Shown piece after piece: positions 1-52,215 of a stretch of DNA of 55,206 nt. The stretch is from contig JAUYKQ010000025.1 of assembly GCA_030699905.1 (NCBI GenBank), forward strand, positions 1 through 55,206, given 5' to 3'. A program made the position numbers and the translations under genes. A model generated the notes under the pieces. The model made no database searches. It had not been told where the DNA came from and saw only the letters and a program-made list of their open reading frames with translations. Every line of letters starts with the position of its first letter. The stretch's first letter is position 1. The DNA is from a bacterium. GTDB lineage: Bacteria > Patescibacteriota > Minisyncoccia > Phycocordibacterales > GCA-002787175.

Positions 1-22
1 TTCACATTCCATGTGATACGTA
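1..22 (-). repeat. edge of a further rRNA hairpin insertion (E0), truncated by the window
   Basis: tcacattccatgtgat is identical to the right edge of E3 (1836-1851) and close to that of E7. Confidence 0.5.
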
Positions 23-140
23 CCGCCGTTATTTGACCTTCTGGCATTGGTCAAGTGTCACCCCCTATACATCCTCTTTCGAGTTCGCAGGGAGCTGTGT
101 TTTTGATAAACAGTCGCCAGGCATACTTTAGCTGCGGCCC

Positions 141-287
141 AGCGCGCAAAGCGCGCAAATCACAAGTTTGTAAAGTAAAAAGTTTATCAAGTTTATCAAG
201 TAAGAACGGAAAATTTTGTTTTTACTTTATAAACTTTACAACTTTATGAACTTTCAACTTGATGAACTGCGTGCTTTGCACGCCAGG
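141..287 (-). repeat. rRNA hairpin insertion E1 (variable helix-63-like position of domain IV)
   Basis: Clamp gcgcgcaaagcgcgc ... gcgtgctttgcacgc encloses AT-rich arms of aagtttat/aagtaa words. Conserved 23S sequence resumes on both sides. Confidence 0.75.
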
Positions 288-820
288 CAGGCCTTATCGC
301 TAACTTACGGCCGCTTTTTTGCCGAGTTCCTTGGAGACCTCTCACTCGTTCGCCTTACTCTACTCGAGCAGATCACCTGTGTCGGTTTGCGGTACGGTTT
401 TCATATAACTGAAGCTTAGAGGATTTTCTCGGAAGGCTCTTCGCGAAGATTTTCCCCCGAAGGAGAATTTCTCCCGAAAACGCGCATGGTATTAAAACCA
501 GCTCTTCGGATTTTCCTGAAAAGCTACGCTCATTTCAAGAGACGACTAATCCAATAAAGCGCCTCCGCTTGTTTCCTTCGTCCCCCCATCGCATTATATG
601 AAAGTCACGGAATATTAACCGTGTGTCCATCGGGTCCGGCATTCGCCATCCCCTTAGGCCCGACTAACCCTTGGCTGACAATCATCGCCAAGGAAACCTT
701 GATCTTTCGGCGTGCGGGTTTCTCACCCGCATTGTGGTTACTTGTGCCAACATTCTTGCTTCCAAACGCTCCACCATGGGTCACCCCTTTGGCTTCATCG
801 CAGATTGGAATATTCTCCTA

Positions 821-950
821 CCGCGCCTCGCGCAAAGCACGCGAACGCCGATTGTCGCCGATAAGACGCCGATGTTCGCGGATGAAATTCATCCGCGTTA
901 ATCCGCGTTTTATCCGCATATTATCCGCGTTCTTGTGCTTTGCACAAGGC
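821..950 (-). repeat. rRNA hairpin insertion E1b (helix-45-like position)
   Basis: Clamp cgcgcaaagcacgcg ... cttgtgctttgcacaag. Arms are built of cgccgat words on the left and atccgcg words on the right. Confidence 0.7.
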
Positions 951-1189
951 ACCCTCAGTTTCGGTACTACGCTTAGCCCCGATTATCTTCGGCGCAAATT
1001 CTCTTAGCGAGTGAGCTGTTACGCTTTCTTTGAATGATGGCTGCTTCTGAGCCTACATCCTCGCTGTCTTTGAAAATTCACCACCTTGAGATGCACTTAG
1101 CGTAGATTTAGGGACCTTAACTTGAGATCCGGGCTGTTTCCCTTTTGACGAACGGAGCTTAGCCCCCGCCGTCTAACTGCCACACTCTA

Positions 1190-1317
1190 CCGCGCAAAGC
1201 GCGGAAGTTACAAGTTCATCAAGTTTGTAAAGTCTGTAAAGTTTGACGGGGAAATTCCCCTTCCGACTTTATGAACTTTATAACTTTATAACTTTATAAA
1301 CTCCGTGCTTTGCACGG
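1190..1317 (-). repeat. rRNA hairpin insertion E2 (domain II)
   Basis: ccgcgcaaagcgcgg ... ccgtgctttgcacgg clamp. Arms are caagttcatcaagtttgtaaag / ctttatgaactttataactttat. Loop is gacggggaaattcccc. Confidence 0.75.
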
Positions 1318-1696
1318 TTCTTCTGGTATTCGGAGTTTGATAGGTCAAGCGAGCTTTCGCCCTGTCTTAACCTTCCAGTGCTCTACCCCCAAAAGGAACG
1401 TGTGACGCTAACCCAAAAGCTATTTCGGAGAAAACCAGCTATTACCAGATTCGATTAGCTTTTCACTCCTTACCACAGGTCATCCGATAGTATTGCACGG
1501 CTAACCGGTTCGGGCCTCCATCCGCCTTTCGGCGAACTTCACCCTGCCCATGGCAAGCTCATCTGGCTTCGGGTCTTTAGTATACGACAAACGCGCTATT
1601 CACACTCGGTTTCCCTACGGCTCCGTGCTTTAGAGGCACTTAGCCACGCCGCATACTAAAACTCGTTGGCTCATTCTTCAATAGGCACGCCGTGAC

Positions 1697-1860
1697 CGTC
1701 GCATCACGCGAAACGCGAAATCAGTTTATAAAGTAAAAAGTTATAAAGTTCATCAAGTAAGAAAAGCGAGCCTCTAAAATCCGGCATCGGTTTTACTTTA
1801 TGAACTTGCAACTTTATGAACTTGATAAACTTAAATCACATTCCATGTGATGCGGCGGCT
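1697..1860 (-). repeat. rRNA hairpin insertion E3 (helix-25-like position)
   Basis: ccgtcgcatcac ... gtgatgcggcgg stem base, internal mini-hairpins gcgaaacgc and cacattccatgtg, and AT-rich word arms. 142/155 nt identical to E7 by manual alignment. Confidence 0.8.
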
Positions 1861-2163
1861 CCGACTCCTTGTAAGCATATGGTTTCAGGTCTATTTCACT
1901 CCCCTCACCGGGGTTCTTTTCACCTTTCCCTCGCGGTACTAGTTCACTATCGGTCTAAAGAAGTATTTAGCCTTACCGGTTAGTTCCGGCAGATTCCCCC
2001 AAGCCATTCGTGTCTTGAGGTACTCAAGAACAAAAACAAAGAAGTTATTTTGCTTTCATGTACGGGGCTATTACCCTCTGGGGCAGTTCTTTCCAGAACT
2101 TTCCATTAACAAAATAATTTGTAACTTCCCTCGTATAAATACAACGTTTTTGTCTTACAACCC

Positions 2164-2308
2164 CTCGCGCGAAGCGCGCTGAACTCGACACGAATCTACG
2201 AATAGAAGATGCGAATGACACGAATAAAATCAAGTTTTGTTAATTTTATTCGTGTCATTCGTTCTTTACATTCGTGTCATCAGTGTCATGTACAGTGTGC
2301 TTCGCACA
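2164..2308 (-). repeat. rRNA hairpin insertion E4 (uses the cgaata/gcgaat word family)
   Basis: cgcgcgaagcgcgc ... gtgtgcttcgcacaa clamp. Arms are acacgaatctacgaatagaagatgcgaatgacacgaataaaat / attttattcgtgtcattcgttctttacattcgtgt. Confidence 0.75.
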
Positions 2309-2352
2309 AGGTTTGGGCTTCTGCGCTTTCGCTCGCCGCTACTGACGCAATG

Positions 2353-2510
2353 GGCGCGCTCCGCACGCAAGTTACAAGTTGAAAGTTTGAAAGTTGAAAG
2401 TCAAAAGTTGAAAGTCAAAGAAGGACGGAGTCCTTTCTTCACTTTACGAACTTTATGGACTTTTTACTTTATAAACTTTTTACTCTATAAACTGCATGCG
2501 AAGCACGCTT
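2353..2510 (-). repeat. rRNA hairpin insertion E5 (domain I)
   Basis: gcgctccgcacgc ... gcatgcgaagcacgc clamp. Arms are made of gaaagtt/caaaagtt words paired to actttat/aacttt words. Loop is ggacggagtcc. Confidence 0.75.
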
Positions 2511-2552
2511 GTTTTCTTTTCCTCCAGGTACTGAAATGTTTTACTTCCCTGG

Positions 2553-2690
2553 GTGCGCTCGCGCGAAGCGCGAGCAAGTCAAAAGTTCATAAAGTTATAA
2601 AGTTTATAAAGTAAAAACAAAATCTGTCGTTCTTACTTGATAAACTTGATAAACTTTTCACTTTATAACTCGTTCGCGCTTCGCGCGTCT
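2553..2690 (-). repeat. rRNA hairpin insertion E6 (helix-9/10-like position)
   Basis: gcgctcgcgcgaagcgcgagc ... gttcgcgcttcgcgcg clamp. Arms are aaagttcataaagttataaagtttataaagt / acttgataaacttgataaacttttcacttt. Confidence 0.75.
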
Positions 2691-2847
2691 CGTGCAAGCA
2701 CGAGGGGTTTCCCCATTCGGACATCTCCGGATCAAAGGTTGCTAGGCACCTCCCCGAAGCTTATCGCAGCCAAGCTACGTCCTTCATCGCCTTCTTTAGC
2801 CAAGGCATCCACCATATGCTCTTAATTTCCTATTAGGAAACTTGTAT

Positions 2848-3012
2848 CCGTCCGCATCACGCGAAACGCGAAATCAGTTTATAAAGTATAAAGTTATAAG
2901 GTTCATAAAGTAAGAAAAGCGATCCTGCAAAATCCGGAATCGGTCTTACTTTATAAACTTGCAACTTTATGAACTTGATGAACTTAATTCACATCCCATG
3001 TGATGCGGACGG
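2848..3012 (-). repeat. E3-like hairpin element E7 lying just upstream (5') of the mature 23S 5' end
   Basis: ccgtccgcatcac ... gtgatgcggacgg perfect stem base. 2854-3008 is 142/155 identical to 1701-1855. Confidence 0.8.
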
Positions 3013-3646
3013 TTCTTAATCCTGTTACATGGAATCTGAAGCTTTCCGCCACAACGCAGAAAACTCGCACCATCACCAATTAACGCTTTCACATCAACAA
3101 ATTTAGTTTTGAGCGTAAAACAAAGTTTTACAGCCAAAAATCATGAATTTGGGTGAAAGGTTGACTGAAGACGGTATCACTCCACATAACTTTCAATATC
3201 GCGCCAACCAAATTGGCGCGAGTTACCTTTTCCGTTTTCGGCACGCAAGACCCCTCGCATTTGCCGCAACGGGATTAATTTGTCAAAGAGGCAAGCTCTC
3301 TCTGTCAATTACGTTATTCTGTATCCGCTTCGCCGCTCTTTTATAAGAACCGCGGAGCCGACACGGAAAGGGTTCATTTTTAATAAAAAACCGCCCTCTT
3401 GTCGTGAGCGGAATTTAAAGCACAACCAAAGGCACGGGTGCTTTATTTTTTCCGCTTTTTAAATCGGGTAGTCACCATAAAATGTAGCTCCAAGTATATA
3501 CCAACCGTATTTATTGTCAATCTCTTGAATAACCCCACCTATTCTTGTGCTCTCGCGGAAAGAAGCGAGAGAATTTTCAATAAATCAATTTTCAAACAAA
3601 GAAACAAGCAAGGCGGGATGAATATTGACCACGAATTTGATGCATT

Positions 3647-3697
3647 GAAAATTTCGGGATTTGATTGAAAATTGAAAATTGCAAAATTGAAAATTTT
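3647..3697. repeat. half copy of the gaaaattg word element
   Basis: gaaaatttcgggatttgattgaaaattgaaaattgcaaaattgaaaatttt closely matches the right arm of the 6121-6231 hairpin. Confidence 0.6.
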
Positions 3698-3756
3698 CTC
3701 TGTCATTCTGATGACGGAGGATTTAAAAATCCCTCCCCCTTCGGGTACCCAAAGAT

Positions 3757-3784
3757 AAAACCCGCGCCTACGGCGCGGGTTTTA
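3757..3784 (-). terminator. intrinsic terminator (bidirectional shape)
   Basis: acccgcgcc-tacg-ggcgcgggt stem flanked by A-run and T-run, 80 nt downstream of the 3864 stop. Confidence 0.7.
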
Positions 3785-3863
3785 TCTTTGTGATTTTGCA
3801 AACTCCAAACCTTGCTACCACACCAAACATTAGCCCAAGTTAAGAGACAAATCCTTTTACTTC

Positions 3864-4556: not shown

Positions 4557-4722
4557 AAAAGTTTGTTTATGTTGTTAGCTGATTGTTAATCTAATACGTC
4601 CGGCTTGCGCCCCGACCTATGGACGTTTTTTTTCCTCCTTCAATTATACCAACAGTTGGACATGTTAAAATAATGAGTGTGGAAAACTCGTATCCGAACG
4701 GCGAACTACGAAAATCCATAAC

Positions 4723-4791
4723 ATAATGCGAACCTACGAACTATTCGAATACTACGAACAAGGAGAACGGTTTCCTTAGTATTCGCATTAT
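4723..4791. repeat. about 69-nt hairpin element (tacgaa/gcgaat words); inverted copy at 27598-27666
   Basis: gcgaatacta...tagtattcgc stem. rc differs from 27598-27666 at about 6 positions. Overlaps the stop codon of the 4788 gene. Confidence 0.7.
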
Positions 4792-6111: not shown

Positions 6112-6120
6112 AATGTAATT

Positions 6121-6231
6121 CAATTTTCAATTTTCAATTTTGCAATTTTCATTGAATTTTTCAATATTCAATTTCCAAATTGGAAATTTCGGGATTTGAT
6201 TGAAAATTGATAATTGTAAATTGAAAATTTT
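6121..6231. repeat. about 110-nt hairpin of caattttc/gaaaattg words in the rplJ-rplL spacer
   Basis: Left arm caattttcaattttcaattttgcaattttc, perfect palindrome tttccaaattggaaa at the centre, right arm ttgattgaaaattgataattgtaaattgaaaatttt. Confidence 0.8.
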
Positions 6232-6260
6232 AATCTAAAATCTATTAATATTCTGGCGAT

Positions 6261-6752: not shown

Positions 6753-6760
6753 GAGAGTTA

Positions 6761-6833
6761 TCTCTAATCAATACATAATCAATCACTAATCAATCCCTAA
6801 TTAAGAACCGAATTTTCTCTAATCAGATTTAGA
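6761..6833. repeat. ctaatcaat / cccgaat word element upstream of rplJ
   Basis: tctctaatcaatacataatcaatcactaatcaatccctaatt...ttctctaatcagatttagag. Same words occur at 25967-26013 and 52788-52875. Confidence 0.6.
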
Positions 6834-7158
6834 GCCAGATTCGGGAGCGCATATTCGCATCCAATTCGGGATTATTCGAGTAAACACTTTCGACCTTTTT
6901 AAAGCCAAACTCCGTCCAGAAGGACGGAGCCAAATAGAAATCCGTGCAAAAAAGCACAGAAACCTCGGCAGGATCCTTGCGGATTATTAAAGCTTTCGCT
7001 TCCTGTCCCGAAGCCGACCTTTCGGTCAGCTTCGGGACCCCGACTAACGTCGGGGCTGTCTTTGGCCTTATGAAGGAAACATTACCAAAAACGCGCCCTT
7101 TTGGCAAATTTTGCAATAAGGGCTTTGCGTATTCTGCATTGCCAGCCGATGGGTGGGC

Positions 7159-7242
7159 GTCGCAAGGGAAGTTCCAAAAAAGTGACCGCTCCAAGGGCGC
7201 TTGCCTAGGGCTCAGTCACTTTGTTGGAACTTCCCTTGCGAC
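7159..7242. repeat. MITE-like palindromic element, copy A (diverged outer arms)
   Basis: gtcgcaagggaagttccaaaaaagtgaccgctccaagggcgcttgcctagggctcagtcactttgttggaacttcccttgcgac. Core is shared with 12323, 20038 and 33419. Confidence 0.75.
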
Positions 7243-7279
7243 GCAGAGTCAAAACAGGAGCTCTGTAATTTGAGATATT

Positions 7280-10200
7280 TTATTCGCCATCTGAATCACC
7301 TTCGTCATCTTCCCCTTCCTCTCCATCTTCCTCTGCTTCCTCGTCCTCATCTTCTTCGCCTTTTTTCCCATCTTCTCCTTCACTCCCTTCTTCATCACCA
7401 TCTTCTGTTCCTTCTTCTTTTTCTGTTTCTTCTTCCTCCGCCATACCGGCCCATGGAATAAACAAAACATTTCCGAAAACCACATCTCCCAAACCAGCCG
7501 GATTATCCGTTTCGTGTTTCGGCCCGGACAAATCTCCCCAATCGTTGTTTTTCGCTTCAACCGGTTCATCCGTGGCGGAATAAACGGCCGTTTCATTGGC
7601 GAAAAACTCGCTCCCGCTTATTAAAACTTGACCGCCGTAAACTTCGGCCCCGATACCGTTTCCCGATATATCGCTTTGCTCTACCGAAAGTTTTCCTCCA
7701 TAGATACTGATTCCAACGTTGCTGTACGATATTTCTGAATTTGAAATCTCCGTTTCGCCGTCGTAAATTTCAACCCCTATATCATTTAGAGTAATCTCGC
7801 TATCTTTTATTTCCACGACTCCCCCGTAAACTTCAATGGCCGTACCGGAAAAGTTTTCGGCTTTTATGTCTTCCAGCAAAAGGGTTCCGCCGTCCTCGTT
7901 ATATACTTCAATACCGCTACCTAAACCTCCGGCAAAATAAACGCGGTATATTTCAGCATCGCTTGAATACAGAGCAAGGGCGGCATTGTCCGCAATATTT
8001 TTTATTTCACCGTCTTCAAAATGAAGAGACGAACCTTCATATGCGACAATCACATCTTCTTGCATAATGTCTGAAAAAACCGCTTCCGAAAGGACGAGGG
8101 AACCGCCGTCATAGACGAGAACCGCTTCGTTTTCAATCCTTTCGGCGAAAAATTCGGACACGGAAACTTCGGTCGGACCAGCCACCACCAGCGCATTCTC
8201 GCTGTCAGATACGGAAATATCGGTCGCGGTGAAATAACCACCGTTTAGGAATTCAATGCCCTCTCCCCACTTCAGAGCAATGTGCGACAAAACCGAATCC
8301 TCCGCTTCTTTGTAAACAAGGAATTTCCACGGCTTTACGGCATCAGGAGAAGTGTCGCCGTCGCCATTTGTGTCCCCTCCCGATTCGTCGTCAAATATGG
8401 AAGTCAAAACCACAGGACTTTCTTTTGTCCCTCCAGAAATGAATTTGCCGGAAAGATAAAGAGAAGCGCCAGGAGCGAATTTTATAACTGTTCCCTCTTC
8501 TGCCTGAAAGACAGCGCCGGACAAAACGACCTGATCCTTCGCTATGAGATAAGGCCCTTCCGAAGCGGCGACTCTCACTTCACCCGCGATATGCTCCCCT
8601 TTGTTTATAAGATACGAAACGCTATTTTTAACTCCCGGTGTTCCGTTTACACTGTTCCCTTCGGCGTCTTTTCCCCTACGTATGATTTCAAGATTGTTGC
8701 CCCAATTTTCAGAGTCGGCTCCCGACAAAAAACTGTTTCGTCTTTCCATGGAAAGTTTTCCTGCATTTTCTCCAGCTGTCCATCCGGAATCCGCGTCGGG
8801 AGTGGAATCAAACGTTACGTCATTGAAATTCAGCTCAAGCTTTCCACCTCCGTTTGAAAGAGACCACTGTGACGCCCCGTTTCCGTAAAGCATATCGGGC
8901 GCCACGTCTGAAAAGGGCCCCGTCTCGTCCGTGGCATTTGCCATGCGTCCCAATACGAAATGTGACATAGGAGCAATCTCTCCCGAAAGCTCTATTTCCA
9001 AATCGTCAGAAACAGCTCGGATAGACCAGCCGGATAAATTTATGGAAAACGGCGTATTATTGTAAAGTTCCAGCCACTCGTGCCTTGAATTATCTTCCGT
9101 CCCCATCCATGCCACTTCGTTTATGACTACGGGAGAAGTGAAAACGGAAACTTCCATCGCACTTGTAGTAGACATGTTACCCGCGCCGTCCTCGGCCGAG
9201 ACCGAAACAGAGTGAGAACCGCCGTCTGACAGAGAGGCAACAGTGCTTGTCGCCTCTGTGGAAGAAACCTCCCCGTCAATATTCAAAAAATAATGAGTCA
9301 CGTCGTCTCCGGTAGACGTCCAATGAATATAAACTTCCGTATCAGTCAAAAGACAGCCGTCCTCCGCAAGAGAACTCTCGCAAGCCGGAATATAAATACT
9401 GACTTCCGGTGACTGAGAGTCCACGCTGAAAGAAACAGTCGTCGGATCGGAAACATTGTCGCTCTCGTCCGTTGCAAAAAAAGATATGTCATGTTCACCG
9501 TCTTCAAAAGACAGAGTCAAAGACCAGATGCCACTTTCGGAGACAATGGATGTTTCCGAGTTGAAGCTGTTGCTTACAGTGGTGGCGCCTTCCGCGACAC
9601 CGCTAAATATCAATATCCCGTCTGTAAACACTTCGGAAAAATCCGCCGGCTCCGTGACAGAGGGTGACTCCGGCGGTTTGGTCTCTGAACTTTCCTTGTC
9701 GGTAACGTCTTCAACAGTCAAACTACTCTCGCCTTTTCGGCTTCCTCCGCCGGAGCCACCCGAGAGTCCCGAAAACACCACAGCCACTTCTTTCAAATCT
9801 TGTGACTGCGGGGAAAAAGAAGAGTCGGCCAAAGCGGGCGGATTGTTTTGGCTGTCCAAAACAATCCGCCCGTTTTCACCCCCCGCCTCCGCTACAGCCG
9901 ATACTTCCTCTTCGTCCCCCCTACTGTTATCCACCTCTCGCGAATTAAAAAGCCCCTCCACGTTTTCACCGCTTACTGCGCCTGAGTCGCCTATGTTTTG
10001 AGATGTATTCTGCGCCACTACAGAAGAAGACACTTTGTCAGAAGAGTCCGTGGCTACGGCGGAAGACGCCACCAGTGTTTCAGGGTCAACGTCTTCTAAA
10101 ACGGAAAACAGGAGCTTCCCCGCTCCGGACACCGCCCCTAAAACAGCTCGGCCTGTTTTGTGAGCAACTTTCGCGGAAACCTCCGCAGTTTTCATTACAC

Positions 10201-11160: not shown

Positions 11161-11811
11161 CTAATTTTGGAAGTTTGATACGTCAATATCACAGACAGGT
11201 TTAGGAGAGTTAGAATAAGACCCCAAATAGCTGTAGAACTTCTCCTTTACAGTCTTTCTGTAACTATTGTTAAGATGCTTTTCATCGACAAAACTCATGT
11301 ATTCATTAATCTTCTCTAAGTCACTGTAACTCCTGGATGATTCCGGACCTTCCCTGGGGACCATAACATCAGCGATGCAATCACCCGCTCTCGAGTTTTC
11401 TTCAATTACGGCATTTACCGTCCCCTCATTCACCACATCCTGTGTCATCTCCAGCTGGAGCGCAAGAGCATACTGCAAAAGTGCCGCTCTTGTTTTAGCG
11501 GAGTCAGGATATTTATCAAAAATCGCCAGCTCCACATCATCTCTTATTCCATTCCCGTTCGCGTCTATTCCCTCCACCGTATCATCGGCCTCTTCCCCAG
11601 GGTCAGGCGGAAGGTTTTCTCCCATCACATCGGCCAGGGTCAATTTAGTCGCGTGTATCTTCTCCACCTCCCTCTCCGTCCTATCCTCCAAGCCCAAATA
11701 TATGGCCCTGCCTATCACCAAAACAACAAACCCTAATACCAAAATACCTGCCACCCATTTGACTATTTTAATCATAAATTTCATTGTAGCAAAACTTTCT
11801 CCCCCCGCCAT
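11161..11811 (-). CDS. membrane-anchored hypothetical protein (start uncertain: 11811, 11784 or 11775)
   Basis: 216-aa ORF with one N-terminal TM (VKWVAGILVLGFVVLVIGRAIYL). 21 nt downstream of it lies the 7280 gene start. Confidence 0.6.
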   Translation of the reverse strand: MAGGESFATMKFMIKIVKWVAGILVLGFVVLVIGRAIYLGLEDRTEREVEKIHATKLTLADVMGENLPPDPGEEADDTVEGIDANGNGIRDDVELAIFDKYPDSAKTRAALLQYALALQLEMTQDVVNEGTVNAVIEENSRAGDCIADVMVPREGPESSRSYSDLEKINEYMSFVDEKHLNNSYRKTVKEKFYSYLGSYSNSPKPVCDIDVSNFQN

Positions 11812-12284: not shown

Positions 12285-12322
12285 GGTGGATAAACTTACA
12301 AATAGAGCGTACGAATAATTTT

Positions 12323-12451
12323 GAATTACGAAATAAGGCAGGCACCCCCCACGAGGAAAGTCACAAAAAAGTGACTAAGACCGGGCAAGCGCCCTTGGAG
12401 CGGTCACTTTTTGGGGAGCTTTCCGAGTGGGGGGCAGATGTTTCGTAATTC
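12323..12451. repeat. MITE-like palindromic element, copy B (inverted relative to copy D)
   Basis: gaattacgaaata...cccccacgaggaaagtcacaaaaaagtgactaagaccgggcaagcgcccttggagcggtcacttttt...tttcgtaattc. Confidence 0.85.
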
Positions 12452-12616: not shown

Positions 12617-14821
12617 TTACTCGCCTTTCATTTCTTGAACGGCCTCCACAAAAGCAGGGTCACTATCGAAAACCTCCGGCGCCTCTTTTCTGACTATCTC
12701 GGCCAGTCGCAAAGATTCTTCAAGATCGCCCGTCAAAAAGTTTAATTTCGCAAGTTCATAAACAGCCGTATAGTCATGAGAATCGCCTTCCACCACATCT
12801 TCCATAAAAAACTTGGCCGTCTCCCAGTCCCGCACTCCGATATAATACGGAAGCGCTTGGCCGGCCACCTTTGCGTCACTTGTATAGTATTCAAGACCCT
12901 TGCCCGACTCTTCGGCCGCCCGTTCGCTTTCCCCCATTGCCCTGTATAAATTGGCGATGACGAAATACGGCTCCGGGTCTTTAGGAACCCTGGTTATGTA
13001 TTCTCTCAAAATATCTATCGCTTGCCCATACGCCTCCATTTTTTCCGCCGACGATACGTCCGCCCCTTGTCGTATGAAAATATTGGCCTTCAAAAACCAC
13101 GGCTGACTTCTTTTTGGAGAAATGTTTATGGTTTTTTCTATTATTTCCTCCAAAAACTTTGTGTCTCTTTCCGCTTCCATCGGCGTGAGGTCTAAAACAT
13201 GCGCGAGGTACATGGCCGTGCGACCGTCATAAGGATATTTTTCCAAGTTTTGAGATAAGATTTTCACCGCGTATTCAAAAGCCAAAACCCGCTCATCGCC
13301 GGAGAGCATTGTTACTTGTCTGTCCGTGTACATGGAATATGCCTGATAGCCGTATTCCAAATCAGCGTATGTGTTGAGCGATAGACCCTTTTCAAAATAT
13401 TCCACGGCTTTCCCTACATCAGAAACGTGTTTATTGTATCCCGAAGCCAAAGCAATATTGGCCCGAAGAGGTGTTACAAAAATCGGCAAAACCAAAGACA
13501 AAACCAAAAGTCCCGCGATAGAAGCCAAAACGGCACGTGGACGAAAAACAGACCCTTTTTTGATTTCCTTCTCCTCTGAAAATATAAAGACCGAACCGGT
13601 AAAAACAAACAAGAGCCATAGCGTCATGGCCGTGTCAAAGACAAAGAAATTGTGTATGGAATAGAACATGGCCATTGCCAAGAAAAATATTCCGTTAACA
13701 TCTCCTTTTTTCCACATTTTCCAGCCGAGAAACCCGAGAAGCAGAATAACTCCGCAATAGAAAAACAAACCGAAAATTCCGTACTGCAGTAGATAGTCAA
13801 AAAAAGAATTATGAGACCGGTCAAACCACTGTTCTTTTATTTGAGTGGGGTCGTAGACCTCGTTAAACAAAGGCGCTATATGCTCCGCTCCGTAGCCCAG
13901 TATCGGCTTTTCCGCCACTTTTGGCAAAAAACTTTTCCAAATAAACAGACGGCTTGAAATCGTACTTTCACTTACGGACACAAGAGCCAAACGGCTTATC
14001 GGCTCAAAAGGAATTTTAGCTATCTCCGAGCGGAAAGTGAAAAACGTCCCCCCTAATATGGCAACGGCTACGACAAAAATACGCGCCCAGAAACGGAGTT
14101 TGGGATGAGTCGCCCTGAAACTCGCGTAAATCAAAGCTACCGCGCCTATGATGATAAAAGCCAGCATCGCGCCACGGGTGGCGGTCAGAAATATCACAAT
14201 GGCCTGCAGGAGTGCGCCGCCGTAGGCGGCGCTCTGCCACTTCCCTTTTAGTTCCGTCGCCGTCGCCAAAGTGGCAAAAAACGTCATTCCCAGATACCCC
14301 GCCAGAAACGCGGCGTTGCCAAATGTTCCACCGATACGCCCGCGCGGCTCGTCAACAATCGGGAAATTTATTCCCAAAGAGACCTCCAGCCATTGAACCA
14401 AAGCAAAGACCGCGGTAAGAGTCCCCACCCACGCCACCGTCTTATACAAAACGGAAAGAAACTTTTTATCCGCGTAAAGCACCACAAGGTAAAAAAAACC
14501 GACCGCGGAAAGCAGTGTCAAAAGTCCGTCCCCTCTTTCAAATGTGGACCAGAAACTGTGGTAGAAATCCACGCCCAAAGCCGAAGTCAGAAAAGCCACC
14601 GCGACAAGTCCCGCCGGAATCCAAACAACTTTGTTTTTCAACCTCCCCCAATAAAATTCTCTGCCGGAAAAAACAAGATAGACGAAACAAGCAAAAGCTA
14701 AAACAAAGAGCCCCCTAAAAAGAAGCGTTTTGAGCGTTACGTGCGGAAAAAGCAATCCGTCAACAAAGACAAGCGGTAAAACGACGGGAGCAATAAGCAA
14801 CCAGTGAAAAAAATTATACAT
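12617..14821 (-). CDS. O-antigen ligase/polymerase-like polytopic membrane protein with C-terminal TPR domain
   Basis: 734 aa. About 12 TM helices in the N-terminal 430 aa, then TPR-like repeats (AVEYFEKGLSLN, YRAMGESERAAEESGKGLEYY). Confidence 0.75.
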   Translation of the reverse strand: MYNFFHWLLIAPVVLPLVFVDGLLFPHVTLKTLLFRGLFVLAFACFVYLVFSGREFYWGRLKNKVVWIPAGLVAVAFLTSALGVDFYHSFWSTFERGDGLLTLLSAVGFFYLVVLYADKKFLSVLYKTVAWVGTLTAVFALVQWLEVSLGINFPIVDEPRGRIGGTFGNAAFLAGYLGMTFFATLATATELKGKWQSAAYGGALLQAIVIFLTATRGAMLAFIIIGAVALIYASFRATHPKLRFWARIFVVAVAILGGTFFTFRSEIAKIPFEPISRLALVSVSESTISSRLFIWKSFLPKVAEKPILGYGAEHIAPLFNEVYDPTQIKEQWFDRSHNSFFDYLLQYGIFGLFFYCGVILLLGFLGWKMWKKGDVNGIFFLAMAMFYSIHNFFVFDTAMTLWLLFVFTGSVFIFSEEKEIKKGSVFRPRAVLASIAGLLVLSLVLPIFVTPLRANIALASGYNKHVSDVGKAVEYFEKGLSLNTYADLEYGYQAYSMYTDRQVTMLSGDERVLAFEYAVKILSQNLEKYPYDGRTAMYLAHVLDLTPMEAERDTKFLEEIIEKTINISPKRSQPWFLKANIFIRQGADVSSAEKMEAYGQAIDILREYITRVPKDPEPYFVIANLYRAMGESERAAEESGKGLEYYTSDAKVAGQALPYYIGVRDWETAKFFMEDVVEGDSHDYTAVYELAKLNFLTGDLEESLRLAEIVRKEAPEVFDSDPAFVEAVQEMKGE

Positions 14822-19370: not shown

Positions 19371-19483
19371 CAGACCTGCTGTGTTGTAGCAATATCCCGA
19401 ATCAGACCCGAATTTAATTCGCGAATATTCGCGAAAAGAATTTAGAAAAAGATTTAGAGACATTACTGCGACACAGCAGATCT
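19371..19483. repeat. long hairpin with cccgaat / ttagag / cgcgaata words in its loop region
   Basis: cagacctgctgtgttgtagcaat (19371-93) pairs with attactgcgacacagcagatctg (19461-83). Confidence 0.6.
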
Positions 19484-20037
19484 GTTTCGACAAAAACCCG
19501 CTTAAGCCGCTTTTAAACTAAACTGCTAATACTAAACTAAACCCACTTCAACACGCACCGAGACCAAGGATGTTTTTATTACAAACTTGGTTCCGACGCA
19601 GTCAACATTAAGACGTGAAGCATATTCTTTCATTACAACCAAATAGGGACATTCTTCCTTGCTGTAAGTTTACGCCATATTCATATTGTCAACGAACCAT
19701 CACAACGCTGTCAGACCATGTAAACAAAAAACTCTCTCGTGTCAGTATTCCAAACATGACAGAGCTGTAAATACAGCTCCCGCATGTTTCAATGAATTAT
19801 ATACCCAGAAATATGGCCTGCCAACAAAATATAATGTGGATAACTTTCCAAAGCACCTCCCGTTTCCTCTTATTTGGTCCCAAAGGAGGGAAAAAGAGGC
19901 CAAAACGTTAGGGTTTCTGAAAAATAACCCATTAAAGCAGTATCGCATATAGGAGGCAAAGAGTCAATTTCAGGCCACTAAATGGGAGGGGGGAGCAAAG
20001 AATGAGATAGGAGATAGGATTTAGGAGATAGGAATTA

Positions 20038-20170
20038 GGAATCACGAAATACGGCAGGCACCCCCAAGAGGAAGTTGCAAAAAAGTGACCGCTCCAAGGG
20101 CGCTTGCCCGGTCTTAGTCACTTTTTTGCGACTTTCCTCTTGGGGGTAAAAAGCGGGTATTTCGTAATTC
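20038..20170. repeat. MITE-like palindromic element, copy C
   Basis: ggaatcacgaaatacggcaggcacccccaagaggaagttgcaaaaaagtgaccgctccaagggcgcttgcccggtcttagtcacttttttgcgactttcctcttggggg...tatttcgtaattc. Confidence 0.85.
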
Positions 20171-20231
20171 ACAGTAGTAATGAAGAATTTAAGGAGGAGA
20201 GAATTTGCAATTTTCTTGCCATTTTACGCGG

Positions 20232-24914: not shown

Positions 24915-24960
24915 CACGATGCGAATTTACTAATTAGACAATTCGAATGACGCGAATAAA
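24915..24960. repeat. left arm of a cgaata-word hairpin that encloses the GxxExxY ORF
   Basis: cacgatgcgaatttactaattagacaattcgaatgacgcgaataaa followed by ATG. Complementary blocks are found in 25351-25399. Confidence 0.7.
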
Positions 24961-25347
24961 ATGGGAGAGGTAGAAAAAATTATACACAAAGAACTCTCGT
25001 ATAGAATTACCGGAATATTATTTAGAACACACAGAGAGCTGGGGAGAATGTGCCGCGAAAGACAATACGGAGATTTGTTAGAAACGCTATTAAAAGAGAG
25101 CAAACTTGAGTACGAGAGAGAAAAGGCGTTGCCGATGGAAAAGCTTGACCGACAAAATACTAATGTGGTAGATTTCTGTATCGACAATAAAATATTGTTG
25201 GATTTAAAGGCCAAGCCATTTGTAACGAAAGAGGACTTCTACCAGATGAGACGTTATCTTGAAGCTGCTGGCTATAATCTCGGTTTAATAGTTAATTTTA
25301 GGAACACCTATCTAAAACCTATCCGCGTCATAAATACGGTTCATTAG
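24961..25347 (+). CDS. GxxExxY-family protein (PD-(D/E)XK-like fold)
   Basis: 128 aa: ...ELGRMCRERQYGDLLETLLKESKLEYEREKALP...VDFCIDNKILLDLKA...RRYLEAAGYNLGLIVNF. Confidence 0.7.
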   Translation: MGEVEKIIHKELSYRITGILFRTHRELGRMCRERQYGDLLETLLKESKLEYEREKALPMEKLDRQNTNVVDFCIDNKILLDLKAKPFVTKEDFYQMRRYLEAAGYNLGLIVNFRNTYLKPIRVINTVH

Positions 25348-25966: not shown

Positions 25967-26013
25967 AATCACTAATCAATCCCGAATTTTAAACCCAAAT
26001 ACTCCCGAATACT
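25967..26013. repeat. ctaatcaat / cccgaat word element after efp
   Basis: aatcactaatcaatcccgaattttaaacccaaatactcccgaatact. Confidence 0.55.
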
Positions 26014-26295: not shown

Positions 26296-26448
26296 GTGTG
26301 TAGCGTGTAGCGTGTAGCGTGTAGCGTCAAAATCGTGTAGCGCGAAGCGTATAACGTGTAGCGTCAGAGTATTTCTTTTCCGGCGTTACACGTTACAAGT
26401 TACAAGTTTTAGATTATGGCGTTACAAGCTATACGTTACACGATTAGC
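26296..26448. repeat. about 150-nt hairpin of gtgtagcgt / acgttaca words in the ssb-rpsR spacer
   Basis: gtgtagcgt x4 on the left, gttacacgttacaagttacaag on the right. 26355-26404 is identical to 52126-52175 (50 nt). Confidence 0.85.
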
Positions 26449-26915: not shown

Positions 26916-26919
26916 ATAC

Positions 26920-27036
26920 TCGATGCTAATTTACGAATAAAAGATGCGAATATGGCGAATTTGGAATCCACGAATGATTTTCTGTCTTCATTTTATTCGC
27001 GTCATTCGTTCTTCTATTCGTATATTCGTGTCGTGT
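26920..27036. repeat. about 115-nt hairpin of cgaata/gcgaat words in the rpsF-ssb spacer
   Basis: cgatgctaatttacgaataaaagatgcgaatatggcgaatttggaatccacgaatg / cattttattcgcgtcattcgttcttctattcgtatattcgtgtcg. Confidence 0.8.
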
Positions 27037-27038
27037 AC

Positions 27039-27597: not shown

Positions 27598-27666
27598 ATA
27601 TGCGAATACTACAAAAACCGTTCTCCTTGTTCGTAGTATTCGCATAATTCGCAGGTTCGCATTATA
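27598..27666. repeat. about 69-nt hairpin element, inverted copy of 4723-4791
   Basis: atatgcgaatactacaaaaaccgttctccttgttcgtagtattcgcataattcgcaggttcgcattat. Confidence 0.7.
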
Positions 27667-27682: not shown

Positions 27683-28642
27683 TTATACCTTGAACATCTG
27701 CCGTGCATTTTTCAAGAGCTGTGCTTGCACGTATTTGAGCGGCATCCCCTTTATCTCCGCTATTCGCTTCACCACCTCCGCTACGTAAATCGGCTCGTTT
27801 CTTTTCCCTCTATGAGGAGCAGGCGTTACATACGGGCAATCGGTTTCCGAAAGAATTCTGTCAATCGGCGCGTATTTTACAAGTTCGTCGTAGTCGCGGG
27901 TGAAAGTGATAACGCCCGTAAAAGATACGTTGAATCCGACATCCAAAATCTCTTTTAGCTCGTCAATTGAGCCGGCAAAGAAGTGGAAATTGCCGCGTGG
28001 AGATGATTTATGATTTACCCTGTGAAATTCGCTAGAAGCGAAAGCCGAAGACGGTTTTTTCACAGGGTTTACGATATATGATTTAAGAATAGAAACCGCG
28101 TCTCTGTAGGCTGAAATCCCCCTCTCCCCCTCTTTGAGGGGGAGATGTCCGGAGGACAGAGGGGGTGCCGGATTTCTCACATGAAGCATAAGCGGCTTTC
28201 CTACTTCAATCGCCAATTCTATCTGCTTCCGGAACGCCTCTTCCTGTTTTTTATGTTCCGTGTTCCATGTTCCATGTTCCATGCGGTAGTAGTCCAATCC
28301 ACACTCCCCTATCCCCACCACTTTCGGGTGCTTTGCCAGATTTTTGTAATACTCGTAATCAAATTCTTCTCCGCGCGAGGTGAACTCTCGGTTCCCTTCC
28401 CCCAGCTCTTTCTCATCATGAAAACTCTTGTCGGTGTGTATCGGGTGCGTTCCGACGATTGCGTAGACGCCTTCTTTATATTTCTCGGCAATCTCCACCG
28501 CTTTTTTGCTCGTATCTTTCTGCGTGCCGACATTTATCATCCACGTATTATTCTCCAAGGCGCGAGAAATAACCTCGTCCCTGTCCGAGTCGTAAGCGGC
28601 AAAGTTTACGTGCGCGTGGCAATCAATAAAAGATGGATTCAT
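27683..28642 (-). CDS. TatD-family metal-dependent hydrolase carrying three in-frame insertions
   Basis: FIDCHAHVNF, GIGECGLDYY, KPLMLHVRN, FHFFAGS, LSETDCPYVTPAPHRGKRNEP. 319 aa versus about 255-260 for canonical TatD. Confidence 0.85.
   Translation of the reverse strand: MNPSFIDCHAHVNFAAYDSDRDEVISRALENNTWMINVGTQKDTSKKAVEIAEKYKEGVYAIVGTHPIHTDKSFHDEKELGEGNREFTSRGEEFDYEYYKNLAKHPKVVGIGECGLDYYRMEHGTWNTEHKKQEEAFRKQIELAIEVGKPLMLHVRNPAPPLSSGHLPLKEGERGISAYRDAVSILKSYIVNPVKKPSSAFASSEFHRVNHKSSPRGNFHFFAGSIDELKEILDVGFNVSFTGVITFTRDYDELVKYAPIDRILSETDCPYVTPAPHRGKRNEPIYVAEVVKRIAEIKGMPLKYVQAQLLKNARQMFKV
28003..28084 (-). repeat. in-frame hairpin insertion 1 in tatD-like CDS
   Basis: atgatttatgatttaccctgtgaaa ... 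tttcacagggtttacgatatatgattt encodes IVNPVKKPSSAFASSEFHRVNHKSS, which has no counterpart in canonical TatD. Confidence 0.7.
28113..28176 (-). repeat. in-frame hairpin insertion 2 in tatD-like CDS
   Basis: gaaatccccctct-ccccctctttgagggggag-...-agagggggtgccggatttc encodes PAPPLSSGHLPLKEGERGIS. Confidence 0.7.
28253..28283 (-). repeat. in-frame gttccatg word array in tatD-like CDS
   Basis: atgttccgtgttccatgttccatgttccatg encodes MEHGTWNTEH. The same array occurs in ileS at 40703-40731. Confidence 0.75.
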
Positions 28643-33374: not shown

Positions 33375-33418
33375 ATGAAAGAATGATTGAAAACTCCAAT
33401 ATGAACTTAAGATACTGT

Positions 33419-33553
33419 GAATTACGAAACACTTGCTTACCCCCCCACTCGGAAAGCTCCCAAAAAAGTGACCGCTCCAAGGGCGCTTGCCCGGGGCTCA
33501 GTCACTTTTTTGTGACTTTCCTCGTGGGGGGGCGTCTGCCGTATTTCGTAATT
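33419..33553. repeat. MITE-like palindromic element, copy D (most complete)
   Basis: gaattacgaaacacttgcttacccccccactcggaaagctcccaaaaaagtgaccgctccaagggcgcttgcccggggctcagtcacttttttgtgactttcctcgtgggggggcgtctgccgtatttcgtaatt. Confidence 0.85.
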
Positions 33554-33603
33554 AAAGATAAGATAAGCACAGATTAACATGGATTTAAAAACGGACAAAC
33601 ACA

Positions 33604-34270: not shown

Positions 34271-35602
34271 TTATTTCGTCACGAGTTTTGATATATGTGC
34301 TGAAAGTTCGTTTACCCCCACCCTCTCCTGCTCTCCAGTATCGCGGTCTCTTACGGTGACATCGTGTTTTTCAAGCGAATCAAAATCAACAGTTACGCAA
34401 AACGGCGTACCGATTTCGTCTTGCCTGCGGTAGCGCTTGCCGATGTTTCCGTTGTCGTCAAAGGCAATCATGGAGCATGGAACTTGTAGCATAGAGCATA
34501 AATCCTTACGGACTTCCCTCGCCTTTTCCACCAGTTCCGGTTTATTTTTAAGAAGAGGAAAGACGGCTACTTTAACGGGAGCAAGCGCCGGTTTTAATTT
34601 CAAGTAGGCGCGAATCTCGCCGTTCATTTCATCTTCGGTGTAGGCGCTGGAAAGGACAGCGAGCACAGTCCTGTCAACCCCAAGAGATGGTTCAATAACG
34701 TGGGGCAAAAACGGCTCACCGCCGCCCTCTTCGCGATACGTCAAATCAACACCGCTTGAAGAGGCGTGGTTTTGCAAATCATAGTCAGTGCGATAAGCCA
34801 GTCCGTACAATTCTTTTCTGCCAAAAGGAAAATCGTATTCAAAATCAATGGTCCGTTTTGAATAGTGCGCTCTTTCGGAATCTGCCACTTCAAGCTCGTA
34901 CACTTTTTCCTTAGGTAAACCGATTTTTTCTATCCAGCTGTTCATTAGTTTTCGCCACTCTTCAAACTCGCCCTTCCAGTCGTCCGGACGAACAAAATAC
35001 TCAACCTCCATTTGCTCAAACTCTCTGGCGCGAAAAAGAAAATCTCTCGGAGAAATTTCGTTTCTAAATGCCTTGCCCATCTGTGCTATTCCAAAAGGCA
35101 ATTTTGGATGGAAAGAGTCAGAAACGTTTTTGAAATTTGTAAAAATGCCCTGGGCGGTTTCGGGACGCAGATATGATACCGATTCGCTATCTTCAGAAGC
35201 TCCGACATGGGTTTTAAACATCATGTTAAACTGTCTTTCTGCTCCGAGTGTCCCCCCACAATCAAAACACTTGTCTTTGTTTTCAAGCTGGTCAATTCTA
35301 AATTTCTTTTTGCATTTTGAACATTCCACCATCGGGTCAGAAAATCCGCCAACATGTCCGCTGGCCTCCAAAACTTTTTGACTGGTTAGGGTAGCCGCGT
35401 CAATTCCATACATATTTTCTCTATCCGTAACAAACATCTCCCACCACAAGTTTTTTATGTTATTTTTCAGCGCAAGACCGTAAGGTCCGTAATCCCAAAA
35501 CCCCGAAAAACCGCCGTATATTTCGGACGCGGGATACACAAACCCCCTTCTCTTGCAAAGTGAGACGATTTTTTCCATTTGGTTATTTTTCTCTTCTTTC
35601 AT
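34271..35602 (-). CDS. glyQS: glycyl-tRNA synthetase, alpha2 (GlyQS) type
   Basis: GKAFRNEISPRDFLFRAREFEQMEVEYF (class II motif 2), GVDRTVLAVL (motif 3 region), anticodon-binding IGKRYRRQDEIGTPFCVTVD. Confidence 0.9.
   Translation of the reverse strand: MKEEKNNQMEKIVSLCKRRGFVYPASEIYGGFSGFWDYGPYGLALKNNIKNLWWEMFVTDRENMYGIDAATLTSQKVLEASGHVGGFSDPMVECSKCKKKFRIDQLENKDKCFDCGGTLGAERQFNMMFKTHVGASEDSESVSYLRPETAQGIFTNFKNVSDSFHPKLPFGIAQMGKAFRNEISPRDFLFRAREFEQMEVEYFVRPDDWKGEFEEWRKLMNSWIEKIGLPKEKVYELEVADSERAHYSKRTIDFEYDFPFGRKELYGLAYRTDYDLQNHASSSGVDLTYREEGGGEPFLPHVIEPSLGVDRTVLAVLSSAYTEDEMNGEIRAYLKLKPALAPVKVAVFPLLKNKPELVEKAREVRKDLCSMLQVPCSMIAFDDNGNIGKRYRRQDEIGTPFCVTVDFDSLEKHDVTVRDRDTGEQERVGVNELSAHISKLVTK
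34469..34499 (-). repeat. probable in-frame word patch in glyQS
   Basis: catggagcatggaacttgtagcatagagcat encodes CSMLQVPCSM directly before the conserved DDNGNIGKRYRR block. Confidence 0.45.
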
Positions 35603-35659
35603 ATTTTTATTCTGCGGTTTTTCTTATGTTCCACGTTTCGTGTTTCGTGTTACACGATA

Positions 35660-43863: not shown

Positions 43864-43969
43864 ATATAGACAGTTTAAGGTATTTTCGGCCTTTTTCCAA
43901 ACGTGTACACCGGCCATGAACAACAAACCGTATGCCAATGGAACCACAGTGTTCGTTTCAGCGCAAACT

Positions 43970-51130: not shown

Positions 51131-52102
51131 TTAGGACTTGCTTGCCGTGCGGTCTTTTTCATCAAACCCTCCGGCAACTGTCATCTCTCCTTTTAGGCGC
51201 GGGTGAGAGTCATAGTTTTCAAGAGTTACTAATTCGGGCTTGAATGTTTCCAAGCTTTTCACTTCATCGTTTATGACAAGACGAGGGAAAGGTTTTGGCT
51301 CCCGAGTTATCTGCTCTTTCACCTGTTCAATATGGTTTTCGTAAATATGAGCATCGCCGAAAGTGTGGACAAATTCTCCGGGTTCATATCCGCATATTTT
51401 CGCCACGATCATAGTTAAAGCGGAATAACTTGCGATATTGAATGGGACCCCGAGAAACATATCCGCGCTTCGCTGATAAAGTTGGCAGGACAATTTATTG
51501 CCGGCAACGTTAAAATGAAAAAGAATGTGGCAAAGCGGAAAAGAAAGCGCTTCGCCCGGTCGGGCCATGGCGTAAAGATAAGTCGGATTCCAAGCGGAAA
51601 GAATGGCGTGCTTGCGTTCCGGATAATTCTTCAGAGTGTTTATAACCCATGCAAGCTGGTCTATTTTCCTTCCATCATCGCTCGCCGTCCATGCCCTCCA
51701 CTGCTCTCCGTATATGTGAGGTAGCTCGCCGTGTTCTTTGGCAAACTCATCGTCGGTTTTTATCTTATCAACAAATTCTTCAAGAGAAAGAATCGGCAGT
51801 TCGCCTTTGTCCGATTTTTTCTTGTAAATTTTGTAAGGATAATCGTTCCATATCGGCACTTTATTATCCACCAAATATTTTATATTTGTCTGCCCCGACA
51901 TAAACCAGTAAAGCTCGTGAAGGATGCTGTTCCATGGTACTTTTTTGGTTGTCAAAAGAGGAAAACCCTTTGACAAGTCAAACCTGATTTGCCTTCCAAA
52001 GACGCTCACAAGCCCTATGCCGGTATTGTGGTCGTGCTTTAAGACACCGTTTTCTAAGATGTCCTTGAGAAGATTTAAATATTGTTGTTCGGGGTGAAGC
52101 AT
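51131..52102 (-). CDS. thyA: thymidylate synthase ThyA
   Basis: WNPTYLYAMARPGEALSFPLCHILFHFNV (catalytic Cys region), LYQRSADMFLGVPFNIASYSALT, GDAHIYENH. Confidence 0.9.
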   Translation of the reverse strand: MLHPEQQYLNLLKDILENGVLKHDHNTGIGLVSVFGRQIRFDLSKGFPLLTTKKVPWNSILHELYWFMSGQTNIKYLVDNKVPIWNDYPYKIYKKKSDKGELPILSLEEFVDKIKTDDEFAKEHGELPHIYGEQWRAWTASDDGRKIDQLAWVINTLKNYPERKHAILSAWNPTYLYAMARPGEALSFPLCHILFHFNVAGNKLSCQLYQRSADMFLGVPFNIASYSALTMIVAKICGYEPGEFVHTFGDAHIYENHIEQVKEQITREPKPFPRLVINDEVKSLETFKPELVTLENYDSHPRLKGEMTVAGGFDEKDRTASKS

Positions 52103-52103
52103 G

Positions 52104-52212: not shown

Positions 52213-52215
52213 GAA

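Follow-up and report, generated by a model that had tools for sequence, protein, structure and literature searches.

The 23S rRNA gene and its insertions

The stretch of DNA analyzed here, referred to as the window, is the 55,206-nt contig JAUYKQ010000025.1 of a patescibacterial genome (assembly GCA_030699905.1), and it opens with part of a 23S ribosomal RNA (rRNA) gene that is interrupted by long hairpin-forming inserts. Read on the minus strand from position 2835 to position 1, the window matches the Rfam model of the bacterial large subunit (LSU) rRNA, LSU_rRNA_bacteria (RF02541), with 1308 bits over model positions 1-1902 of 2925. This is the 5' two-thirds of the gene (1-2835, minus strand; E. 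coli ~1-1868), and the gene leaves the window at position 1, where the 3' end of the covariance-model match is cut. Ten conserved blocks found by BLAST are colinear with E. coli rrlH and are broken only at the insert sites. Eight inserts, each of 128-164 nt, with the eighth cut by the window edge, sum to 1,032 nt at 40.7% GC within the 2,835 nt, and the 23S core of 1,803 nt has a GC content of 49.1%. A preliminary description of this DNA had proposed a 23S rRNA gene with inserts at these eight places. The RF02541 match and the colinearity with rrlH confirm the gene, while the sites and their coordinates are borne out by a covariance-model alignment, run as a check, which leaves large unaligned blocks at all of them, and by anchor distances. 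An anchor distance is the spacing between conserved anchors, measured in ~30 Paceibacterota 23S genes and given below for the window against the baseline of these relatives. Together with the BLAST blocks, it was used in place of pairwise MAFFT alignment against E. coli, which misplaced the 5' inserts.

All inserts are given on the minus strand, starting from the 5' end of the gene, and fold stabilities are given as the minimum free energy (MFE, in kcal/mol) with its z score against shuffled sequences. The first insert occupies the terminal loop of helix 10 (H10; 2553-2690, E. coli ~160-166), where the covariance-model alignment has an unaligned block [110] within the H10 stem and the anchor distance is 159 against 42-57 (MFE -63.3, z -8.4). 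The second lies in the single-stranded linker between H11 and H13 (2353-2510, after E. coli ~227), as a block [160] following GGAAAAGAAA; the anchor distance there is 168 nt in the window and 16 nt in E. coli and 14 relatives (MFE -66.9, z -9.0). The third extends the tip of H15 (2164-2308, E. coli ~277; block [132]; distance 225 against 96-98; MFE -74.6, z -10.4) and is built from the word family GACACGAAT. Two further inserts stand at the classical sites of bacterial intervening sequences (IVSs), as the preliminary description had recognized and as both the alignment and the mapping to E. coli show. One is at the tip of H25 (1697-1860, E. coli ~545; distance 253 against 98-104; MFE -65.8, z -7.4), with ~133 explicit insert columns in the covariance-model alignment, and the other is at the tip of H45 (821-950, E. 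coli ~1174; distance 212 against 103-111; MFE -83.3, z -10.9), with the word family GCGGAT / ATCGGC. Between these two, an insert branches from the internal loop on the 3' strand at the base of H38 (1190-1317, E. coli ~929-933; block [150]; MFE -60.2, z -9.3). Sequence comparison places it between CCAGAAGAA and TAGAGTGTGGCAG and leaves the tip of H38 intact; the anchor distance is 223 nt in the window and 94-96 nt in E. coli and in all 27 relatives measured. The last two are at the tip of H63 (141-287, E. coli ~1730; block [127]; distance 177 against 43-53) and in the terminal GCAA loop of H68 (1-22, E. coli 1869-1872), where the alignment opens an insertion of which only the start lies in the window. 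The sites outside H25 and H45 thus fall in variable helices of domains I (H10, the H11/H13 linker and H15), II (the base of H38) and IV (H63 and H68), in agreement with the preliminary description. A ninth copy of the hairpin, which that description lacked, lies in the leader of the gene (2848-3012, minus strand), separated from the 23S 5' end by 13 nt (MFE -74.9, z -10.3). The inserts carry no open reading frame (ORF), as had been claimed, the longest stop-free stretch in any of them being 52 codons. A search of the inserts against Rfam at E <= 1 returned nothing beyond noise from plant and animal microRNA precursors.

Every insert folds as a single long hairpin, with MFE values from -60 to -83 kcal/mol and z scores from -7.4 to -10.9. 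The host stem leads into a GC-rich clamp that is itself a mini-palindrome, followed by long AT-rich arms made of tandem 7-9-nt words and a small asymmetric loop. The palindromic nature of the clamps had been noticed before and extends to all 16 insert ends, each of which is a GC-rich mini-hairpin of 4-7 bp with a 3-nt loop (for instance, GCGUGC-AAA-GCACGC at a 5' end and GCGCGC-UUU-GCGCGC at a 3' end). The two ends of an insert are mutually reverse-complementary, which allows two kinds of pairing: each end can fold on itself as a mini-hairpin, or the two can join in a clamp of 15-18 bp. In the H45 insert, one pair is altered on both sides, which preserves the local hairpin and breaks the long-range pair. 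Two inserts of the closest relative in the comparison (locus L085) give a hint of how such structures could be built up. Its H45 insert (57 nt; L085 12230-12287) is the clamp layer only, like that of the H15 insert, and its H15 insert (L085 10979-11120) has similar clamps plus AT-rich arms. As one is a clamp alone and the other a clamp with arms, the pair suggests growth by nesting, in which a loop would become a clamp hairpin and a long hairpin would then arise inside the loop of the clamp.

Copies within the genome and the same sites in relatives

Judged from their sequences, the inserts are paralogues that are kept alike within the genome and that lie in one transcription unit with a promoter-like site. 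The leader copy is 92% identical to positions 1700-1855 of the H25 insert over 156 nt (0.91 globally), and the fragment of the H68 insert, TATCACATGGAATGTGAA, matches CATCACATGGAATGTGAT of the H25 insert and shares its clamp with the H25 and leader copies. The H63 insert is related to the reverse complement of the H10 insert, with 80% identity overall and 91% over the central 94 nt, the non-palindromic loop included; in the same orientation the identity is 68%. The H12-site and H38 inserts have TTTATAAAGT-type words in common, and the H15 and H45 inserts use different words. When the inserts of all genomes were compared all-against-all by BLAST, matches between different sites were found only within one genome, namely in the window and in L059 (among its H10, H25 and H45 inserts), and none joined different sites of different genomes. 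The closest relative, L084/L085, is represented by four independent assemblies (L084-L087), and the H25 (11426-11596) and H68 (12973-13133) inserts of L085 are 99.4% identical over 161 nt. Both sites are filled in the window as well, with clamps that are alike in the two genomes (CATCACA...TGTGATG) and arms that are species-specific, a pattern that would be expected from the concerted evolution of old inserts. Since these inserts are mutual copies, one of them in the leader, copying or conversion of a palindromic element at the DNA level is the likely source of the resemblance.

The same sites can be followed through ~30 relatives. At every site, most of them have a short spacing that equals or nearly equals that of E. 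coli. A scattered minority is enlarged at each site but H38, where only the window has an insert; L085 and L059, for example, are also filled at H68. Empty sites are plain tetraloop hairpins, and the inserts of the window take the place of the loop. At the sites of the window, the relatives have either short loops or unrelated sequence. Many of their inserts again combine a GC-rich mini-palindrome clamp with AT-rich tandem-word arms, the words differing by genome. Across genomes only the H25 clamp (CATCACA...TGTGATG) recurs, and beyond close relatives no insert matches one of another genome. Some of the larger inserts carry genes. In L037, the H25 insert encodes a 23S_rRNA_IVP protein (Pfam E = 1.4e-24), and this insert and the ORF-less H45 insert of the same locus share both arms (89% over 35 nt and 95% over 21 nt, colinear). 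GIY-YIG nucleases of 87-98 aa are found in inserts at H25 (L013), H63 (L037) and H15 (L027), and the IVP and GIY-YIG ORFs alike lie in the loop that long inverted repeats enclose. In L059, a copy of the genome's own hairpin family begins a large insertion at E. coli 2593, a conserved site in the peptidyl-transferase region, and a group I intron was detected near it. The H11/H13 linker has a history of its own, in that many Kaiserbacteria-like genomes (L010, L021, L029, L034, L049, L052, L053, L063, L065, L071, L078 and L083) have an extension of 68-114 nt there that is conserved in sequence (…GGAACTTTCTTTCTG…CCATTAC…CAGGAAGAAGGTTCTTGCGATTCCCT) and is likely a retained, lineage-specific expansion segment. 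As further observations on the relatives, an H10 copy of an ORF-bearing insert in L037 appears truncated, and mid-sized inserts of 245-430 nt in L071 (H45), L029 (H12 site and H45) and L053 (H63) contain ORFs of 27-77 codons. None of these ORFs has a Pfam match; two look like small hydrophobic peptides.

The 23S gene appears to form a transcription unit of its own, as a promoter-like site follows a terminator-like hairpin that closes the upstream gene. The promoter-like site (3493-3520, minus strand) reads TTGACA, 16 nt, TATACT, lies ~650 nt upstream of the 23S 5' end and has 11 of 12 consensus matches in what was a scan only; the bidirectional terminator-like hairpin (3750-3790) stands between it and the upstream gene. 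There is neither a 16S gene nor a tRNA gene in the window, and the 23S gene is thus unlinked from 16S. In 44 of 80 related Paceibacterota loci, the 23S gene lies downstream of the genes for ribosomal proteins L10 and L12, in a few of them on the opposite strand, which makes this arrangement a conserved one. Many of the related contigs (loci L008-L083) end within the 23S gene. Elsewhere the window encodes ribosomal proteins L10 and L7/L12, RecA, FtsK, several aminoacyl-tRNA synthetases and surface proteins typical for the candidate phyla radiation (CPR). The best relatives of L10 are found in metagenome-assembled genomes (MAGs) of Parcubacteria/Paceibacterota (52-62% identity), and the closest MscS-like protein, which is 70% identical, in a Crystal Geyser Parcubacteria MAG. 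By these relatives and the L10-L12...23S gene order, the host is a member of the CPR/Patescibacteria (Paceibacterota). No relative closer than these 70% (MscS-like) or 62% (L10) was found in the collections searched. An exact-protein look-up gave two short Logan contigs of 1-1.7 kb, and a metagenome scan with a 20-mer of the hairpin element gave no match. The MscS-like protein of the window is present in SRR13727534 and SRR26726065.

Hairpins of this kind can also be looked for outside the rRNA unit. The main word family makes up nine elements with 34 word hits in 1-3012; in 3013-55206 there are scattered single word hits and no element. The H15 type alone has partial intergenic relatives, at 26932-27033 and 24944-24962. 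The former belongs to an intergenic tandem-word hairpin at 26916-27038 that shares words with the H15 insert (BLAST 91% over 45 nt and 96% over 24 nt); beyond the rRNA unit, no other sequence of the window is clearly related to an rRNA insert. In the L10-L12 spacer, a hairpin of TTTTCAA words (6119-6236) has two arms that resemble the arms of the L085 H25/H68 inserts (89% over 38 nt and 94% over 32 nt, colinear); homology is likely here, though not certain because the sequence is of low complexity. Sliding-window MFE values taken along all of the window lacked the specificity needed for a list of hairpins. The window is rich in tandem 7-9-nt words and in hairpins built of them, in spacers and even in frame within the gene of isoleucyl-tRNA synthetase (IleRS), and slippage of short words would for this reason seem to be a general property of this genome.

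Several observations on these words stand apart from the rRNA inserts. Spacer hairpins with complementary tandem-word arms (GTGTAGC/GTTACAC, TTTTCAA/TTGAAAA, CGAAC..., TCACTAATCAATCCCGAAT...) follow the same building principle. They are found at 26298-26440 and 52092-52215, 6119-6236 and 3644-3701, 4700-4787 and 27600-27665, and further at 6753-6835, 25967-26013 and 52780-52875, and at 19395-19460; several of them form small repeat families with copies that are 90-91% identical. The IleRS gene (40219-43947, minus strand, 1242 aa) has tandem 7-nt words in frame (TGTTCCA, TGTAGCG, ACTTTAA and ATTTCGG) at 40574-40605, 40702-40793, 41070-41099 and 43180-43238, which yield repetitive peptide stretches such as HGTWNMEHGT. 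Words of this type also occur at 28253-28283, 34469-34499 and 35635-35651, and the same words are used in intergenic hairpins elsewhere in the window. The enzyme also contains a complete His_Phos_1 domain (residues 575-747, E = 2.7e-40), a histidine-phosphatase domain that separates the catalytic part from the anticodon-binding part. Four copies exist of a structured intergenic repeat (7140-7262, plus strand; 12310-12445, minus; 20030-20182, plus; 33408-33562, plus), which has an invariant core AAAAAAGTGACCGCTCCAAGGGCGCTTGCC...AGTCACTTTTTTG inside a longer stem, five pairs preserved despite changes on both sides, and no Rfam match at the gathering score. In the ribosomal-protein operon of several relatives, tandem-word tracts lie just upstream of the L12 start codon in L032, L053, L008 and L056, and a 34-nt piece of L059's own rRNA hairpin family (9963-9996, 88% identity) lies directly upstream of L10.

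Identity, fate and spread of the inserts

IVSs are extra stems of 100-200 nt in 23S rRNA that RNase III cuts out, and ribosomes work whether or not this happens (PMC8708148). Tsurumaki et al. 2024 (PMC11270868), who surveyed CPR bacteria, report insertions in 82% of 23S genes and up to 16 in one rRNA gene; short (<200 bp), ORF-less, non-intron insertions in 23S are there regarded as probable RNase III IVSs, and rRNA insertions are said to be removed from transcripts. Because of their anatomy, site, size, patchy distribution and link to IVP-bearing inserts, the hairpins of the window are, as far as sequence can tell, 23S IVSs of the dense, short, ORF-less, non-intron class of CPR bacteria. Six of them (H25, H45, H10, H15, H63 and H68) are at helix tips and two (the H11/H13 linker and the base of H38) are internal; each is a single extended stem of 100-200 nt, and presence among relatives is sporadic. 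The IVP gene, a hallmark of many IVSs and not of all, enters via L037 only, the inserts of the window being ORF-less. As in the short CPR class, they add at least 100 bp relative to E. coli, stay below 200 bp, match no group I or group II intron model and have no ORF. The phenomenon is thus not new, and the contrast that the preliminary description drew with ORF-bearing CPR introns was overstated, as short ORF-less CPR insertions are already catalogued in the survey (PMC11270868).

What happens to the hairpins in the RNA is a separate question, on which the preliminary description had named both cutting and retention. By analogy with IVSs elsewhere, we lean towards their excision from the 23S RNA, which would be left in pieces. 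Excision is favored because the leader copy, and the L059 copy inside an insertion that is itself excised, lie in parts of the transcript that are discarded. The 23S would be transcribed from its own promoter with all hairpins in place, and a double-strand-specific endonuclease, most likely RNase III, would cut each AT-rich stem, including that of the leader copy. The pieces would not be religated. The first ~1,870 positions of the mature 23S would then be divided into no fewer than nine pieces, of ~145, 42, 44, 303, 379, 239, 533 and 118 nt and the rest. Host helices and GC clamps would presumably keep these pieces together; alternatively, the mini-hairpins of the clamps may cap the new RNA ends.

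A number of points weigh against this course of events. No RNase III gene is present in the window, excision at every site would produce two very small pieces of 42 and 44 nt, and we know of no description of such extensive fragmentation in a bacterial 23S rRNA. Mismatches between the arms are not clearly those of an RNA under selection, as G-U (36) does not significantly exceed A-C (25; p = 0.2) and there is no clear selection on the rRNA-sense transcript; because of this, it looks as if DNA-level processes are what chiefly maintains the palindromes. In eight of eight folds the antisense strand is the less stable one, which is weak evidence when taken alone. The sequence-conserved 68-114-nt H11/H13 extension of many relatives resembles a retained segment, and since it does, retention seems to occur in the clade. 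Finally, unprocessed IVSs are tolerated in E. coli ribosomes, so that excision is not needed for function (PMC8708148).

The chief alternative is that the hairpins are retained as expansion segments, which would project as rods of 15-20 nm on the solvent side of an enlarged, eukaryote-like large subunit; we consider this possible and clearly the less probable fate. It draws on the fact that all sites are surface-variable regions. H25, H45 and H63 are the sites of the eukaryotic expansion segments ES7L, ES15L and ES27L, the 3' strand of H38 that of ES12L, and H10 the place of the internal transcribed spacer ITS2. Tandem words on both arms also recall the 'compensatory slippage' that Hancock and Dover reportedly described in eukaryotic expansion segments in 1990. 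Retention is further consistent with the linker extension conserved in relatives, with functional ribosomes that contain unprocessed IVSs (PMC8708148), and with random functional insertions in E. coli 23S, which coincide with expansion-segment sites (PMC2441807). It fits poorly with other features of the inserts, which, the H25 clamp excepted, have no sequence conservation with those of relatives at the same site and vary in presence between genomes. Copies of the element also occur in the leader and in the E. coli 2593 insertion of L059, where retention is impossible, and the IVP gene of L037 is flanked by the same stem family. In addition, ~35% extra rRNA would be costly in a very small cell.

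How the hairpins arose and spread can be considered independently of their fate. Slippage of tandem words may have supplied the material, inverted duplication and arm-to-arm correction inside the palindrome may have kept the arms complementary, recombination between the arms may have flipped the center, and ectopic gene conversion or copying may have carried the element among sites of the rRNA unit. A bolder form of this scheme is that the hairpins are a self-propagating palindrome family confined to the rRNA transcription unit and copied or converted among helix tips, leader and introns, a proposal that we regard as speculative and rather doubtful. Such a family might be a miniature form of the GIY-YIG- or IVP-carrying IVSs of relatives. 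Were it real, the LSU rRNA would come in at least 10 pieces, two of them of ~43 nt and the 5' one 5.8S-like, or else would have eukaryote-style expansion segments; in a cut rRNA, the nested GC mini-hairpins would cap the ends or clamp fragments to one another.

Somewhat less probable again, and in our judgment unlikely, is that the hairpins are non-autonomous elements similar to miniature inverted-repeat transposable elements (MITEs; compare the Correia and Rickettsia palindromic elements), moved into rRNA loops by a nuclease encoded elsewhere, such as the GIY-YIG nuclease of relatives. This explanation concerns spread and is compatible with either fate of the RNA. Near-identical copies at different sites and in both orientations, palindromic ends, and the common stems of ORF-bearing (GIY-YIG, IVP) and ORF-less versions within a genome would all be accounted for, as would the partial relatives of the H15 insert in intergenic DNA and the arm words of L085 in the L10-L12 spacer of the window. 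Against this, inspection by eye of the insert boundaries, compared with the empty sites of relatives, gave no consistent target-site duplication, and all nine copies of the main word family fall in the 3 kb of the rRNA unit, the remaining 52 kb having none. The inverted H63/H10 pair was considered as proof of transposition and was rejected as such, as recombination between the arms flips the center of a palindrome without transposition. The H25 and H68 inserts, filled in both the window and its closest relative with similar clamps and genome-specific arms, are better explained by concerted evolution of old inserts.

Two further readings can be set aside. Group I introns are common in CPR 23S genes (PMC11270868) and are present in the relatives L053 and L059, and yet self-splicing introns that are ligated out are highly improbable here and were rejected on model match, size and type of site: no Intron_gpI or group II match was found in 1-3100 even at E <= 1 by the same search that detects group I introns in L053 and L059, simple hairpins of 128-164 nt are too small for an intron core, and CPR introns gather in conserved 3' regions, unlike the present inserts with their sites at variable helix tips. 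That the locus is a misassembly or an rRNA pseudogene in decay is just as hard to credit, even though the contig ends within a repeat copy at position 1 and copies that are 91-92% identical could mislead an assembler; the conserved blocks are intact and colinear and score highly against the covariance model, the rRNA sequence on either side of every copy is unique, and independent assemblies of relatives (e.g., L084-L087) repeat the architecture at the same sites, so that pseudogene and chimera were both rejected.

Known systems and significance

The closest comparison is with the classical bacterial IVSs of Salmonella, Yersinia, Campylobacter, alpha-proteobacteria, Leptospira and Coxiella, which are likewise AT-rich stems of ~100-200 nt at helix tips, notably those of H25 and H45, and are patchy in distribution. 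Classical IVSs occur with or without a 23S_rRNA_IVP gene and are excised by RNase III without ligation (PMC8708148; PMC11270868). The window differs from them in having at least eight inserts per gene plus a leader copy, in its additional sites (H10, the H11/H13 linker, H15, the base of H38, H63 and H68), in the paralogy between sites and in the tandem-word arms; excision here is proposed by analogy only. With the short insertions of CPR bacteria (Brown et al. 2015; Tsurumaki et al. 2024, PMC11270868, as far as its consulted sections go), the inserts share the host group and class and a preference for the less-conserved tops or bases of stem-loops. Those sections of the survey do not cover internal architecture, within-genome paralogy, orientation flips, a leader copy or intergenic relatives (PMC11270868). 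Measured against this part of the literature, what appears undescribed is that copies are paralogous within a genome, that one is flipped in orientation, that another stands in the leader, that the clamps are nested, and that the base of H38 and the tip of H68 serve as sites.

Other systems offer partial parallels. Eukaryotic expansion segments, and the 'compensatory slippage' proposed for them, resemble the inserts in occupying surface sites and in building both arms of a helix from simple repeated motifs. Expansion segments are retained and conserved by lineage, whereas the inserts are genome-specific and have copies also in parts of the transcript that are removed. The Correia elements of Neisseria and the Rickettsia palindromic elements are palindromes of 100-160 bp that form RNA hairpins; Correia elements are RNase III substrates, and the Rickettsia elements are found inside genes, including RNA genes. 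Both are dispersed genome-wide, with defined ends and target duplications. The hairpins described here are unlike them in that the main family is limited to the rRNA unit in the 55 kb seen, with no evident target duplication. LSU rRNAs are naturally fragmented in the eukaryotic 5.8S/28S pair, in Euglena and in trypanosomatids. If all inserts were excised, the first fragment of the window's 23S (~145 nt, ending in H10) would correspond to 5.8S; the spacers here are, unlike those of the fragmented LSU rRNAs, simple hairpins, and the fragmentation is predicted.

In practical terms, inserts of this kind break assemblies, as with the present contig, which ends in one, and they defeat the annotation of CPR rRNA genes and primer design. 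The locus is a well-resolved and compact case of surface rRNA helices gaining length, in which the same palindrome recurs at eight helix sites as well as in the leader; in relatives it surrounds IVP and GIY-YIG genes. If the hairpins are excised at all sites, this would be, to our knowledge, the most fragmented bacterial 23S rRNA described and a natural analogue of the 5.8S/28S split; with retention, the bacterium would have ribosomes that carry large expansion segments. With copies that are alike within a genome and different between genomes, the inserts link bacterial IVSs, the rRNA insertions of CPR bacteria and the slippage-driven growth of expansion segments.

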